Of a stretch of DNA of 13,999 bases, positions 5,643-13,904 are shown one piece after another. The DNA is from a virus (lineage: Duplodnaviria; Heunggongvirae; Uroviricota; Caudoviricetes), in IMG/VR virus record IMGVR_UViG_2563366967_000002, positions 1-13,999 of that record; one strand, given 5' to 3'. A program made the position numbers and the translations under genes. Below the pieces are notes generated by a model that saw nothing but the letters and a program-made list of their open reading frames with translations, made no database searches and was not told the origin of the DNA. Position 1 is the stretch's first letter. Each line of letters starts with the position of its first letter.

Positions 5643-5768
5643 GCTGTATATGCAACGGAGGAAGAAACCTCGTTGCTGGAAGCCTGGAAGAAGTATCGGG
5701 TGTTGCTGAACCGTGTTGATACATCAACTGCACCTGATATTGAGTGGCCTGAAATACCTGAAGTTTAA
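5643..5768 (+). pseudogene. Tail fibre assembly protein Tfa, 3'-terminal remnant (last ~37 codons only)
   Basis: In-frame translation after a TGA at 5640-5642 gives ...[37 protein letters not shown], matching the recalled lambda Tfa C-terminus. No start codon or N-terminal part in frame. Confidence 0.75.
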
Positions 5769-5773
5769 AATAA

Positions 5774-5799
5774 AAGCCCGCTTAAAATAACGCGGGCTT
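5774..5799. terminator. Bidirectional hairpin terminator between the tfa remnant and convergent katN
   Basis: Stem aagcccgc / gcgggctt with a 10-nt loop. The minus-strand reading is followed by a T-rich tract (ttattttaaa); the plus-strand reading has a weaker T tract. Confidence 0.6.
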
Positions 5800-5887
5800 C
5801 GAAATATAAATGTATTTTCAGAGGCTAGAGCTTAGGATATCTCAGCGGCAATTAACTTATGAGGGATAGCTAAATACCAGAAGATAA

Positions 5888-6778
5888 TTAGTTTTTACTA
5901 TTTATCTTTGTTTGTGGTTCTCCTTCAGCAAGCTCAGCGCCAGTGACAGGATTGATGTCTTCATGGGATTTCAACCTTGTTGCCATAGCTTTTATCATAG
6001 CTTCTTGCTTGGTCGAAAGATTTATCGAGGCCTTCCCATCCCCACCGTCAACCGCTGGAACTGGATCGGAAACATAGTCAAAGTTTTCATCACTGTTCCA
6101 ACTACCTCTGACGTCTTCACCTTCTGACATGTTGTAATATACGTTTTTGTATTTCTCAATTGGTGGTAATTTTCCTGGTGGAAAGGTGTTACGAATTGAA
6201 TGTAATGCTTTTTCAAATGAAAGCATGTGTGCTGCTTCCCTGGTCATTAAAAATGCCAGAGTGTCTTTTACTCCAGGATCATCAGTAACATTAATGAGAC
6301 GTTCGTAAATGATCTTTGCCCGAGCTTCAGCTGCAATATTTGAACGAAGATCGGCCGTGACTTCGCCAATAGTATCAACATAAGCTGCAGTCCAGGGTAC
6401 ACCAGCTGAATTAGTTAATGCTGGGCCTCCTCCGTAGAGGAGAGAAGTTATATGGCTGTCATTGCCATTTTGAGTTAAGGAACGGTAAAGCTCAGCTTCA
6501 TTCTCAGTTCCTTCGGCAAGTGCTCCTTTTGCACCTTTGTTGAGCATACCAACAAGAGAACCAATAATTTCGAGATGACTTAGTTCTTCTGTTGCTATGT
6601 CCATCAGCATATCCCTTCGGCCTGCATCTTCATCACTTAAGCCTTGAGTGAAGTATCGGCATGCTGCTGCAAGCTCACCCTGTGGCCCGCCGAATTGTTC
6701 TAAAAGTAGATTAGCCAAGCCTGGGTTTGGCTCACTTACACGTACTGTATATTGAAGTTTTTTCACGTGTCTAAACAT
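5888..6778 (-). CDS. katN: Manganese (non-haem) catalase, KatN/CotJC-like ferritin-fold
   Basis: 296 aa. N-terminus MFRHVKKLQYTVRVSEPNPGLANLLLEQFGGPQGELAAACRYFTQ is the characteristic Mn-catalase start, with di-metal ligand motifs EELSHLE and TREAAHM. Strong SD (gaggagg) upstream; last gene of a minus-strand operon. Confidence 0.85.
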   Translation of the reverse strand: MFRHVKKLQYTVRVSEPNPGLANLLLEQFGGPQGELAAACRYFTQGLSDEDAGRRDMLMDIATEELSHLEIIGSLVGMLNKGAKGALAEGTENEAELYRSLTQNGNDSHITSLLYGGGPALTNSAGVPWTAAYVDTIGEVTADLRSNIAAEARAKIIYERLINVTDDPGVKDTLAFLMTREAAHMLSFEKALHSIRNTFPPGKLPPIEKYKNVYYNMSEGEDVRGSWNSDENFDYVSDPVPAVDGGDGKASINLSTKQEAMIKAMATRLKSHEDINPVTGAELAEGEPQTKINSKN

Positions 6779-6796
6779 AATGCCTCCTCAAAAGAA

Positions 6797-7303
6797 TTAT
6801 TTTTTGGCTTCAACTCCATCAATTTCAGATCTGACCATGAATTGCTCAGTGGTGTCAGGAATATGGTTAAGAAGCCATTCAGCCATTTGTTTTTCTTCAT
6901 TAAGAATTGCTTCAATAATGGGTACTGAAGCTGTATCACCCGCATTTTTGGCTGCTGCGAGAAGAGATGTGTAACACGCAATTTCAAATTGTTCGAACAC
7001 ATAGCCACTGATCGAACCTTTGACAATTTCATCAGATGGAAAAATTCCACCAATGGATTGCCCAAACGCGGCCATTTTACTCATAGAGTCTTTAATGACA
7101 GAGCGCGAAATATTATTACGATCAAGTATGCTTTCAAGCTGTGAAAGCTGGTTCTTTGTTTCGCTAATGTGCTGCTCAATTCTGGAACGTAACTCTGGAT
7201 AGTTTTCTATCCGGCTGGCCATAGACTCAAGCATTTTTTCAGCTTGTTTCTCCATCGCATGTGCATCACGAAGCCAGTCATGGTAATGTTCAATTCTATT
7301 CAT
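6797..7303 (-). CDS. yciE: YciE-like ferritin-like (DUF892) stress protein
   Basis: 168 aa helical protein paralogous to the upstream YciF-like ORF. Gene order yciG-yciF-yciE-katN matches the recalled Salmonella operon. Confidence 0.85.
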   Translation of the reverse strand: MNRIEHYHDWLRDAHAMEKQAEKMLESMASRIENYPELRSRIEQHISETKNQLSQLESILDRNNISRSVIKDSMSKMAAFGQSIGGIFPSDEIVKGSISGYVFEQFEIACYTSLLAAAKNAGDTASVPIIEAILNEEKQMAEWLLNHIPDTTEQFMVRSEIDGVEAKK

Positions 7304-11463: not shown

Positions 11464-11483
11464 AGAAAATCTGGTTAACTTCG

Positions 11484-12437
11484 TTAAAAGGTGTACTTAA
11501 GACCAGCAGTAGTGATGAAGTTATAGTTTTCTATGCCTGCACCATTTTTGCTGTAGTCTGAAGTGTTATCATTGTGATCATAAAGTGAAGTATTACCTTT
11601 TTTATTCGTAACCCGATTCCATGCGCCTTCAACATAAACTTTTGCGTTAGGTGTTACGTAATAACCTGCATTGACTGCAACAGAATAGTAATTTTGGTCT
11701 TTGACTTTACTGCGATAAGTGATTCTTTTTCCTGGGTCATAGTGCTCATCGTTATCAGATGCTTCCACCCAGCCGCTGTATTTAAATGTGCCACCTAGCT
11801 CAAAATCTTCATAACGATAACTTCCAGTCAAGCCAATGTAGGGCATTTTAAAACGTTGTTTGTAGCCGATTGCTCTTTCTCCATTCGGGAAGGAGCCGAT
11901 ATCATCTCTGAATCCCTCCTCAGAACTGTAGATATAGGAACCACCTCTGGCTGTAAAGCTATAACGGCTTTCCTGATATCCGGCCATGAGTCCCAGGCGG
12001 TAATTGGGTTCGTTGAGGAGCCAGCCTTTGATATTCAGATCAAATTCGTTGGCATAATTGAGTTGTGTATCAGGGTGCCTACTTTCATCTGTCCAGGTTC
12101 CGGGGTTACTGGAATCCATCCAGTCCTGATCGACCATATTGCCACCCCGGCTGCCGAGAGTAGTCCAGCCCGCAGCCCCAATAGATATCTGGGGCATCAA
12201 ATCCCAATTAATTGCACCTTTAATAATTGCAGCGTTATTGAATTTCCAGTCGAGTTGACTGACTTTTCGGCCTCCTTCTTCAGCTAGATAAACGCGCTCT
12301 TTTGTTTTTCCGCTCAGAGTTCCAAGACTAATGTCCGCATTTATGTTGTCAGGAGTAAACGATATAGTCTCGGTAGAAGCAAAAGAGCTGATCGCAATAG
12401 GGGTTGTCAGGACTATTCCCAGAAGTTTCGCCCGCAT
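11484..12437 (-). CDS. ompT: Outer-membrane protease OmpT (omptin family)
   Basis: 317 aa. MRAKLLGIVLTTPIAISSFASTE… through …ITTAGLKYTF is essentially the recalled E. coli OmpT sequence; SD ggaga upstream. Confidence 0.95.
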   Translation of the reverse strand: MRAKLLGIVLTTPIAISSFASTETISFTPDNINADISLGTLSGKTKERVYLAEEGGRKVSQLDWKFNNAAIIKGAINWDLMPQISIGAAGWTTLGSRGGNMVDQDWMDSSNPGTWTDESRHPDTQLNYANEFDLNIKGWLLNEPNYRLGLMAGYQESRYSFTARGGSYIYSSEEGFRDDIGSFPNGERAIGYKQRFKMPYIGLTGSYRYEDFELGGTFKYSGWVEASDNDEHYDPGKRITYRSKVKDQNYYSVAVNAGYYVTPNAKVYVEGAWNRVTNKKGNTSLYDHNDNTSDYSKNGAGIENYNFITTAGLKYTF

Positions 12438-12860
12438 AAAAGGTCTCCATTCAATCGTTTTAATGATTGAGTATGTATTTTTTATATCTAACTTAATGAG
12501 TCAATTACATATTGCTCCACTGTTTATATTTTGTTTAGTATTGAATGATTATCACAATGCGCTATCTATTTTTGGTTTAATTATCTGTTGTTGTTTCATA
12601 TTTCAGTTTTACTGTGTGTTTTTTTATGCTTTTGTGGTGCTTTTATCTATTTAAGTGCCATGCCTTTAGAGGCATATAAGCGAAAATAGCACGAGGTTTA
12701 TCCTCAATTGCTATGTTTTTTAGTACAAAAAAGAGGGACAAAACTGAGACACATAAGGCCTCACAATGGCTTGCAAGGCTTTACATGTTTTGAGGTAGTG
12801 GGACGTGTGAGCGCAGAGATGGCGCGGTAATTTGTTGACTTAAAATGTCGTTCTAGGAAC

Positions 12861-12904
12861 TTCTAAGTCGTGGGCCGCAGGTTCGAATCCTGCAGGGCGC
12901 GCCA
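12861..12904 (+). tRNA. 3' fragment of tRNA-Arg(UCU) (argU-like; anticodon loop to CCA), not an intact tRNA; prophage att core remnant (pauD-like)
   Basis: cttctaagtcgtgggccgcaggttcgaatcctgcagggcgcgcca matches the recalled 3' half of argU including T-arm and acceptor 3' strand; sequence upstream of the anticodon loop does not match and cannot form D-arm or acceptor 5' strand. Confidence 0.7.
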
Positions 12905-12911
12905 TTAAAAT

Positions 12912-13529
12912 TCAATCAGTTACGCCTTCTTTATTTCTTCTATAATTCCAGAGTGGGACATTATCACCAAAAATGTCGTCTATTTTCCTCGCGTGCTCAG
13001 TCAAATGATTAGGCGCAAGGTGAGCATATCTACGAACCATTTCTCTGGACTCCCATCCGCCCATTTCCTGAAGCACTGATAATGGGACGCCTGACTGAAT
13101 CAGCCAGCTTGCCCAGGTGTGTCTGAGGTCATGGAAACGGAAATCTTCAATTCCTGCACGACGACAAGCTGATAGCCATGCTGTCTTGCTGTCGATGCGC
13201 ATCTTCCTGACCGCAGGCGTTGATGTTCCATCTGCTCGCTTAGCCGCCTTGGTATGTACAAACACCCATTTGTGATGCTTGCCTATTTGATCACGCAACA
13301 CTTTACAGGCGGTATCGTTCAGCGCCACACCAATGGCGCGGTTTGATTTGCTATCTTCTGGATTCACCCTGGCAACTTGTCGCTGCATGTCAATCTGTTG
13401 CCACTCCAGATTTATGATGTTCGACTTTCTCAGAACAGTTACCAGCGCAAATTTGACGACAGATTTCAGTGGTTCGGGGCTCTCATCAATCAGGCGTTTT
13501 GCCTGATTCTTTTGTAAGTCTCTTGTGCC
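12912..13529 (-). pseudogene. Tyrosine recombinase (phage integrase) C-terminal catalytic-domain fragment
   Basis: Contains [38 protein letters not shown] (catalytic His-x-x-Arg and Tyr region). Only ~200 aa of the expected ~380; the upstream part of the listed ORF (to 13649) is the antisense of tfa. Stop lies 8 nt from the tRNA fragment 3' end, the arrangement recalled for argU-intD. Confidence 0.8.
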
Positions 13530-13904
13530 ATTCCACCTCATACAGGTTTGCCTGCAAACAGTACCGATATTGCACCGCCAGATATTCCGGCTGGCTTCGT
13601 GGTTGTTTTCAACAGTGATGAGGCATCGTGGCATCTCGTTGAAGACCATCGGGGTAAAACGGTTTATGACGTGGCATCAGGGGACGCGTTATTTATTTCT
13701 GAACTCGGTCCGTTACCGGAAAATGTCACCTGGTTATCCCCGGCAGGGGAGTTTCAGAAGTGGAACGGCACATCATGGATAAAGGATACGGAGGAAGAAA
13801 CCTCGTTGCTGGAAGCCTGTAAGATGTATCGGGTGTTGCTGAACCGAGTTGATACATCAACTGCCCCTGATATTGAGTGGCCTGTGAACCCTGTCAGAGA
13901 GTAA
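13530..13904 (+). pseudogene. tfa: Tail fibre assembly protein Tfa, 5'-truncated (N-terminal ~30 codons replaced by the integrase fragment)
   Basis: …[86 protein letters not shown]…[37 protein letters not shown] matches recalled lambda Tfa. In-frame stop at 13515-13517; the only start is a TTG at 13548. Confidence 0.75.

Follow-up and report, generated by a model that had tools for sequence, protein, structure and literature searches.

Three tfa 3′ ends of probably separate origin in a lambdoid prophage region at the argU/DLP12 locus

How does one stretch of phage DNA come to carry the same gene end three times? This question is raised by a stretch of 13,999 nucleotides (positions 1 to 13,999 of the virus record IMGVR_UViG_2563366967_000002 in IMG/VR; hereafter, the window), in which the 3′ end of tfa, a gene of the Tfa family (lambda Tfa, PF02413), occurs at three places. 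An initial annotation had interpreted the three segments as copies of one another that partition a single accessory region, and as a recurrent joint at which accessory genes (morons) are appended and from which they might be deleted. We consider that, in all probability, each segment encodes the conserved C-terminal domain of a different tfa gene, and that these genes, each with its own history, were brought together by the swapping of modules and by the integration of a prophage beside a relic at argU.

Three ends of one gene family

A repeat search of the window returned one direct repeat family with three copies, at 5655–5760, 9477–9582 (75% identity, ungapped) and 13788–13893 (92%). In their full extents, the tfa 3′ ends cover 5652–5768 (copy 1), 9474–9548 (copy 2) and 13788–13904 (copy 3), all on the plus strand, and the tfa frame is read through by all three. 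Local alignment gave 93 identities in 97 positions (95.9%) for copies 1 and 3 (5655–5751 and 13788–13884), 65 in 75 (86.7%) for copies 1 and 2 (5652–5726 and 9474–9548), and 59 in 72 (81.9%) for copies 2 and 3 (9477–9548 and 13788–13859). These pairwise alignments bear out the coordinates, strand, peptide motif and similarity ranking of the initial annotation; the similarity is real at the nucleotide level, i.e., 81.9–95.9% over 72–97 nt in the same frame and on the same strand. A 24-nt core, allowing up to three mismatches, matched exactly three sites, which are copies 1–3, and none in 200 shuffles; a 70-nt probe matched copies 1 and 3 and nothing in the shuffles.

The family assignment is provided by the Pfam profile Caudo_TAP (PF02413), for which the curated cut-off is 22.1 bits and all three copies lie above it. 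The copy 1 peptide scored 65.5 bits (6.9e-18; profile positions 95–131 of 131), the copy 2 open reading frame (ORF) scored 62.3 bits (6.5e-17; ORF residues 31–77, profile positions 75–121), and the copy 3 ORF scored 77.9 bits (1e-21). In each case, the repeat encodes the last 25–37 positions of the profile. None of the three has the form of a complete tfa, i.e., about 190 codons, directly downstream of a fibre gene and capable of specifying a chaperone, and none is a functional gene; all three fragments are annotated as incomplete pseudogenes in the RefSeq relatives.

The direct orientation and shared register of the copies are what replication slippage or unequal crossing-over of a single tfa end within this genome would leave. 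However, their flanks are wholly different, their identities are 82–96%, and near-identical counterparts are found where the other two copies are absent: in phage 21 for copy 1, in strain K-12 for copy 2, and in strain LF82 for copy 3. A duplication within this genome is thus highly improbable, and the view of the segments as copies of one another had to be given up, since for each one closer relatives exist in genomes without the other two.

The invertible segments of the Pin/Gin/Cin type, in e14, Mu and P1, involve stf, tfa and duplicated tfa sequences (see PMC3945230). The repeats could by that analogy be targets of a site-specific shuffling of fibre genes, given that those systems also combine stf and tfa genes with duplicated tfa sequences; we regard this as scarcely conceivable here. 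The marks of an invertible segment are a serine invertase and inverted repeats. No serine invertase was found among the ORFs of the window, where each cargo-side ORF of at least 168 amino acids has another assignment, and the tfa ends are direct, not inverted, both in the window and in all 36 multi-copy loci listed in the survey described below. The breakpoints are also spread over about 100 nt and do not fall on one core.

The window contains a second repeat that was absent from the initial annotation. Positions 8565–8639 and 13925–13999 are 95% identical and represent the 3′ ends of two ybcY genes. This was the earliest indication that a larger unit is repeated at the right end of the window, and it assigns that unit to a second element.

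The third end and the argU attachment site

Over its whole length (1–13999), the window is 99.7% identical to NZ_CP128578.1 (E. coli VG38-53E1). Because the chromosome of that strain continues beyond the end of the window into ybcY-ompT-ybcH-nfrA-nfrB-cusS, the window represents the argU/DLP12 locus of E. coli; the position between argU and ybcH-nfrA, as for DLP12, is found through this genome and LF82. For convenience, we refer to the longer element on the left as prophage A and to the short one on the right as relic B.

The boundary between the two is an attachment (att) site. Window positions 11480–12906 match K-12 over a stretch that begins at ompT and ends shortly beyond the right end of DLP12, positions 12857–13502 match K-12 from the interior of argU into intD, and the two matches overlap by 50 nt. 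The region 12820–12935 consists of the argU core with a phage-side arm on each side, and an end-to-end alignment showed that its layout is identical to that of attP in phage 2G7b; attL and attR of K-12 each share just one arm with it. The window therefore combines an att core from the 3′ end of argU with an adjoining intD-type tyrosine integrase, as in DLP12, and presents an attP-like site where the right end of one prophage meets the integrase of its neighbour, as in a tandem lysogen. A tRNA search of the window found no tRNA gene; the att core, which comprises no more than the final ~50 nt of argU, was recovered by alignment. The attR of DLP12 has been described as a 47-bp argU-like sequence (PMC6379469).

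The order ompT-attP-int is contiguous in the free phages 2G7b and ev243, and window positions 8552–13502 are 98.5% identical to both. In a chromosome, this order occurs only between tandem prophages. We detected the ompT-att-int junction (window 12450–13350) in 79 of 5,426 complete genomes, including the avian pathogenic E. coli (APEC) strain APEC O18 and several strains of extraintestinal pathogenic E. coli. APEC O18 has three tfa fragments, all incomplete according to the Prokaryotic Genome Annotation Pipeline, and does not have the catalase module that follows copy 1 in the window.

What lies to the right of the att site also exists by itself. In LF82, relic B stands alone as argU-int′-tfa′-ybcY-ompT-ybcH, and the exact int′-tfa′ deletion junction (window 13380–13680) was found in 1,121 of the 5,426 genomes. 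The integrase fragment is annotated as a pseudogene in VG38-53E1, LF82 and APEC O18. By comparison with tfaD of K-12, the 5′ end is missing from the tfa of the relic, and ~105 nt (35 codons) are deleted internally and in frame between two ACGGAGG-like motifs. We place copy 3 in a separate element because an attP-type site (12857–12906) intervenes and the relic exists alone; the integrase fragment is the left end of the resident relic B, and copy 3 is its tfa. The initial annotation had treated copy 3 as a boundary of one accessory region and the integrase fragment as one of its modules. Neither claim stands, since positions 12857–13904 lie outside the accessory region, beyond the att site, and the integrase fragment is the end that the relic shows in those 1,121 genomes.

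The tandem arrangement explains why the strain has two ompT genes, in regions that are ~94% identical (window 11484–12437; VG38-53E1 18860–19813), and two ybcY genes (~98%). In relic B, ybcY directly abuts the ompT region (VG38-53E1 18704–18715, corresponding to window 9353 and 11327), with ~12 nt shared at the junction, and the tfaX and hydrolase/appY block is missing. The same ybcY-ompT arrangement has been reported for the uropathogenic strains CFT073, UTI89 and 536 (bioRxiv 10.1101/594564). We also observed that the right end of the deletion in the relic tfa (13788) corresponds to within 3 nt to the start of copy 1 (5652–5655), both being located at (GCA)ACGGAGGAAGAAAC; this shared breakpoint may be a coincidence or a local hotspot for illegitimate joining.

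The first and second ends and the joint they mark

Copy 1 has 38 codons, no start codon and an in-frame stop ahead of it. The sequence that leads into it (window 2971–5708, comprising stf, two small ORFs and the start of the tfa stub) is 98.9% identical to phage 21, and the combination of this stf, the two ORFs and the stub was found in phage 21 and more than 20 other phages. The two small ORFs are present in phages 21, 2G7b and ev243 and accompany this type of fibre in place of Tfa, and the phage-21-type fibre apparently needs no Caudo_TAP protein. The phage 21 record annotates two predicted membrane helices in the phrog_1443 ORF.

A different upstream partner is found in strain JNE181771, in which an intact tfa precedes the same catalase-ybcY-tfaX-hydrolase-ompT block. 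Its homology to the window covers exactly 5652–12906 (99.4%), window positions 3340–5651 are unrelated to it, and the homology of stf to other prophages, such as that of JNE181771, ends at 3340. In a five-way alignment, the left junction of copy 1, where GGTGAGCTGTATAT meets GCAACGGAGG, and the single-nucleotide polymorphisms (SNPs) at 5671 and 5690 are common to the window and 2G7b. From 5751 onward, the tail WPEIPEV, its stop codon and the downstream DNA are common to the window and the catalase-linked intact tfa of JNE181771. Since phage-21-type SNPs lie to the left and the catalase-type tail to the right, copy 1 appears to be a recombinant, with the crossover in the ~60 identical bases of 5691–5750. 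We had considered an illegitimate junction within the last tfa codons, suggested by a BLAST endpoint at 5750, and rejected it: the variable tails are diverged alleles of the true C-terminus and not junk, because all of them retain the pattern WPxxP.

2G7b, ev243 and K-12 do not have the catalase module, and in them the counterparts of window positions 5750 and 8552 are only 30 nt apart. The module is a moron in the sense of being present or absent between near-identical phages and atypical in composition; the hydrolase gene further downstream alternates with appY. In phage 21, the stub ends at 5708 at an unrelated junction to sitDCBA. The block of the catalase gene, two genes for ferritin-like DUF892 proteins and the KGG gene (5888–8101) was detected in 139 of the 5,426 genomes, accompanied by the remainder of the right arm; these four stress genes resemble the chromosomal yciGFE(-katN) operon.

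Copy 2 belongs to a unit that is shared with K-12, where the annotated order is tfaD-ybcY′-tfaX-appY-ompT. Window positions 8552–9553 are 97% identical to ybcY-tfaX of K-12, and copy 2 can be identified as tfaX, seemingly an old relic that is also present in DLP12 of K-12 and in the free phages 2G7b and ev243. It is homologous to tfa from 9428 onward, and this homology is gradually lost beyond 9548, at the junction with the hydrolase module, so that both ends of tfa are missing. The homology to K-12 is broken between 9553 and 11480, and K-12 has appY at the position of the hydrolase gene. In a further IMG/VR locus, the 3′ end of this tfaX is complete and the cargo is a different one. Among the loci listed, 30 carry the tfa-ybcY-tfaX unit with a spacing of 1,049 nt, all in direct orientation.

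Each copy was said to sit at a module boundary, and comparison with related loci confirmed that homology boundaries coincide with the copies. To define the nature of this joint, we surveyed tfa 3′ ends in the window, in reference loci and in a sample of at least 120 IMG/VR contigs chosen by an exact 23-nt pattern, many of which are near-identical E. coli prophages. Among those listed, at least 165 copies were found, at least 108 of which were followed by 600 nt or more of sequence, and the latter fell into at least 25 unrelated downstream clusters. The cargo included ybcY, the hydrolase gene, the catalase module and cdtABC, as well as predicted invertase-, TIR- and reverse-transcriptase-like proteins, whose motifs were judged by eye only. 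At least five upstream arrangements occurred among the matches listed: an intact tfa (128), the phage-21-type stub (25), a second truncated junction type that we call juncC (6), the deletion type of the relic (4), and others (2). The phage-21-type stub was followed by at least five cargos, namely ybcY, the catalase module, clusters 5 and 10 of the survey, and sitABCD in phage 21, and each time its tail was that of the intact tfa located before the same cargo. The juncC stub occurred with two cargos, and in some stubs a 5′ half that had diverged was joined to a 3′ half of the standard type.

Separate illegitimate events would not give rise to the same cargo-specific tails, and repeated homologous crossovers within the 60–100 nt of the tfa 3′ end would be the simplest reading of this pattern. 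The part of the initial annotation that described a recurrent recombination joint thus survives comparison with related prophages, as one stub junction recurs with at least five unrelated cargo modules, each with its own tail; the part in which the three copies arose by appending morons to one prophage does not. Not every boundary of a repeat is a homologous joint either: copy 1 on its left, copy 2 on its right and the phage 21 stub at sit are bounded by illegitimate truncations.

Recombination across stf/tfa homology has been observed between lambda and the Rac and Qin prophages, where it depended on Red, with a minimum of ~30 bp for Red-beta (PMC3945230). Tfa proteins combine a variable N-terminal with a conserved C-terminal domain, as stated in a passage of PMC9608196 that cites the Mu Tfa structure, and this conserved domain explains why otherwise different phages have this DNA in common. 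We suggest that, through the functional conservation of this domain, the tfa 3′ ends of unrelated lambdoid right arms are kept near-identical and so offer 60–100 nt of homology, which would suffice for Red/RecT-type recombination of the phage or RecA recombination of the host. Fibre modules upstream and cargo downstream would then re-assort across this end. As the DNA from tfa to attP would be dispensable, relics and AT-rich cargo may accumulate there.

A more far-reaching reading is that the non-coding stubs of 50–100 nt are not mere debris and are maintained, by conversion from intact tfa genes and by selection at the level of modules, as portable homology arms that allow Tfa-less fibre cassettes, and cargo blocks (catalase, sit, cdt or ybcY), to be swapped between lambdoid phages and relics of prophages. 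The last 50–100 nt of tfa are kept in all of at least four independent kinds of 5′-truncated stub, the stubs match functional tfa alleles at 97–99% identity, some of them are patchworks that seem to have been overwritten repeatedly, and one type occurs with at least five cargos. However, neutral retention with frequent recombination with intact tfa predicts the same pattern, phage 21 has lost half of its stub with no obvious consequence, and many other kinds of relic also persist in this dispensable region. The data allow such maintenance but do not require it, and we regard it as a tentative and rather doubtful idea. If true, it would be a concrete and testable case of the linker sequences that Susskind and Botstein reportedly envisaged in the modular theory of phage evolution.

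Deletions, history of the locus and known relatives

Repeats of 72–97 nt at 82–96% identity are possible substrates for deletion by RecA or Red. We therefore searched the 5,426 genomes for the deletions that the initial annotation had predicted between the repeats. The chimera for copies 1 and 2 comprised 702 nt, with 400 nt of intact tfa up to ...GATACATCA followed by window positions 9549–9850. No genome matched it at a coverage of 80% or more, with the limit that only tfa alleles like that of JNE181771 were detectable with this query; the best match (62%) was a normal tfaX locus. For copies 1 and 3, the 3,367-nt chimera had no full-length single-piece match among the top-ranked matches listed, where such a match would be expected to stand first if the deletion existed. 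The matches consisted of two or three pieces and included the hydrolase gene, i.e., the normal arrangement. One genome counted at ≥ 80% coverage for this chimera was not a deletion, as the long query had allowed normal pieces to be joined.

These results also bear on the explanation from which the analysis started, i.e., a single prophage whose accessory region was built by repeatedly appending morons at the tfa 3′ end, which was duplicated each time and left repeats as deletion substrates. In its favour, all copies have the same orientation and coincide with boundaries of homology, recombination does recur at the tfa 3′ end, and repeats of this length and identity might in principle be enough for deletion by RecA or Red (Red-beta requires at least ~30 bp; PMC3945230). 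However, copies 2 and 3 are separated by an attP-type att site and an integrase, the element with copy 3 occurs alone in 1,121 genomes, copy 2 and ybcY form an old unit common to K-12, the copies are closer to relatives elsewhere than to each other, and no deletion chimera was seen. Overall, we consider this explanation unlikely.

We prefer three tfa genes of separate history, and from the observed anatomy, att site, shared and unshared junctions and mosaic SNP pattern we infer the following order of events and the enzymes named above. A receptor-binding module of the phage 21 type (the 3′ two-thirds of stf and the two small ORFs) would have replaced the 3′ end of stf and the 5′ end of tfa in prophage A, with a left boundary at ~3340 and an illegitimate right junction at 5652, and copy 1 would be the stub of prophage A's own tfa. 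A later homologous crossover in this stub (5691–5750) would have linked it to the tfa allele that accompanies the catalase/DUF892/KGG stress module. The tfaX of copy 2 would be an older relic that was displaced downstream when a tfa-ybcY block was inserted ahead of it, and whose 3′ end was cut in the window by the hydrolase-ompT cargo. Finally, prophage A would have integrated at argU beside a resident 3-kb DLP12 relic (int′-tfa′-ybcY-ompT), which would place the relic tfa in direct order behind an attP-like junction.

Several points weigh against parts of this history. The order and direction of the events are unreadable from sequence alone, and the catalase module could have been lost from phages of the 2G7b type rather than gained in the window. 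The position of the crossover at 5691–5750 depends on just two informative SNPs and a diverged tail. The first 30 codons of the copy 2 ORF match no tfa profile, and tfaX as a displaced older tfa is a reconstruction. Furthermore, the near-identical E. coli prophages in the sample mean that the survey counts are not independent events.

Among known systems, the window is most readily compared with the right arm of DLP12 in K-12 (tfaD-ybcY′-tfaX-appY-ompT-attR). Both use the same argU site with a core of 47–50 nt, their integrases are 95% identical at the nucleotide level, both have the tfa-ybcY-tfaX unit (window 8552–9553, 97%), and ompT is the last gene before att. In contrast to the window, K-12 has appY instead of the hydrolase gene and no catalase module between tfa and ybcY. 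DLP12 of K-12 is also a single element, whereas the window contains a fuller prophage and a 3-kb relic, hence the third tfa end and the second ybcY and ompT. The phages 2G7b and ev243 (genus Nesevirus) share with the window the order J-lom-stf-two ORFs-tfa stub-ybcY-tfaX-hydrolase-ompT-attP-int but do not have the 2.8-kb catalase module. The classic lambdoid phage 21 shares stf, the ORFs and the stub up to 5708 at 98.9%, but its stub is cut there and followed by sitDCBA. Being single genomes, these three phages have no third tfa copy. Measured against the Tfa family itself, the repeats correspond to the end of its profile and not to a functional gene. The locus can accordingly be described, at the level of sequence, as a right-arm variant of DLP12 in a Nesevirus-like prophage with a phage-21-type side fibre, beside a common DLP12 relic.

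Morons and the mosaic evolution of lambdoid phages were reportedly set out by Juhala et al. in 2000, and the K-12 annotation has listed tfaD and tfaX for decades. The window fits the moron and mosaic pattern of lambdoid phages (De Paepe et al., 2014; PMC3945230) in having AT-rich, oppositely oriented, present-or-absent cargo downstream of the last tail gene. It is the same in kind, but the site of the crossover in the window is a non-coding stub of 100 nt and not a complete gene. In searches of the literature on tfaX and ybcY, we came across no paper that treats these relics as a subject of their own.

As tfaD and tfaX are standard K-12 annotation, and recombination across stf/tfa and cargo downstream of fibre genes are established, the locus matters little as a discovery and serves as a clean worked example of a familiar prophage mosaic. 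One dead gene end of 100 nt links one receptor-binding module to at least five sets of cargo (stress genes, iron transport, a methyltransferase and others), and the arrival of a phage next to an old relic leaves two copies each of ompT and ybcY. Annotators can take the integrase fragment and the third tfa end as marks of a second element and not of cargo, and the example also helps in typing the number of ompT copies or the borders of prophages at argU. The features of the window are summarized in Table 1.

Table 1. Features identified in the window, in order of position.
Feature	Position	Strand	Basis or remark
J, tail tip gene, 3′ part, prophage A	25–2256	+	Pfam Ig_J, Phage_Tail_Tip, Ig_GpJ_C; gpJ in VG38-53E1; cut by the left end of the window
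lom, Ail/Lom outer-membrane protein	2324–2923	+	Pfam Ail_Lom 5e-127
stf, phage-21-type side tail fibre	2982–5051	+	Pfam phage_tail_N 3e-68 (conserved N-terminus), Laminin_G_3-like C-terminus
Two small ORFs (5048–5326 and 5339–5632)	5048–5632	+	phrog_1361, phrog_1443
Copy 1, dead tfa 3′ stub	5652–5768	+	Caudo_TAP 6.9e-18
Stress cargo module, whole	5751–8557	-	Pfam
Mn catalase	5888–6778	-	Pfam
Two DUF892 proteins	6797–7303, 7340–7846	-	Pfam
KGG stress protein	7919–8101	-	Pfam
ybcY-like class I SAM methyltransferase, prophage A	8599–9267	-	Pfam methyltransferase domains; 97% to K-12 ybcY region
tfaX-type relic ORF (copy 2 core 9474–9548)	9324–9629	+	Caudo_TAP 6.5e-17
Alpha/beta hydrolase cargo	9813–11297	-	Pfam Abhydrolase_1
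ompT, last gene of prophage A	11484–12437	-	Pfam Omptin 3e-130
att core, 3′ end of tRNA-Arg argU	12857–12906	+	Alignment with K-12 attL and attR and 2G7b attP
intD-type integrase fragment, C-terminal part, left end of relic B	12912–13502	-	95% to K-12 intD; Pfam Phage_integrase
tfaD-type relic of element B (copy 3 13788–13904)	13530–13904	+	Caudo_TAP 1e-21
Second ybcY (relic B), 3′ end	13913–13999	-	95% to 8565–8639; cut by the right end of the window

The G+C content is 50–63% in the tail genes and 34–46% in everything past ~4000, with 34–44% in the catalase module. Promoter-like sites were as frequent as in shuffled sequence (20 observed, 20.3 in the shuffles). A hairpin with a perfect 14-bp stem (9757–9792), located directly behind the hydrolase gene, is the strongest terminator-like structure of the cargo region, and another hairpin lies between copy 1 and the catalase gene.

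One further IMG/VR locus (IMGVR_UViG_3300029091_000062, 4523–8172) has cdtABC between an intact tfa and the hydrolase-ompT block, an identification that depends on a CdtB-like N-terminus and ORF sizes only. We had considered this locus as a tfa-hydrolase deletion product and rejected it, as cdtABC replaces ybcY-tfaX and the junctions lie outside the repeats. Two scraps of a phage-21-type small ORF downstream of its tfa (5348–5486) represent a further layer of relics. In VG38-53E1, stf (6989–9052) is annotated in two pieces, as a pseudogene and a “head spike fiber,” which is probably a frameshift or a sequencing difference in that genome; the stf of the window is one ORF of 689 codons, as in phage 21.

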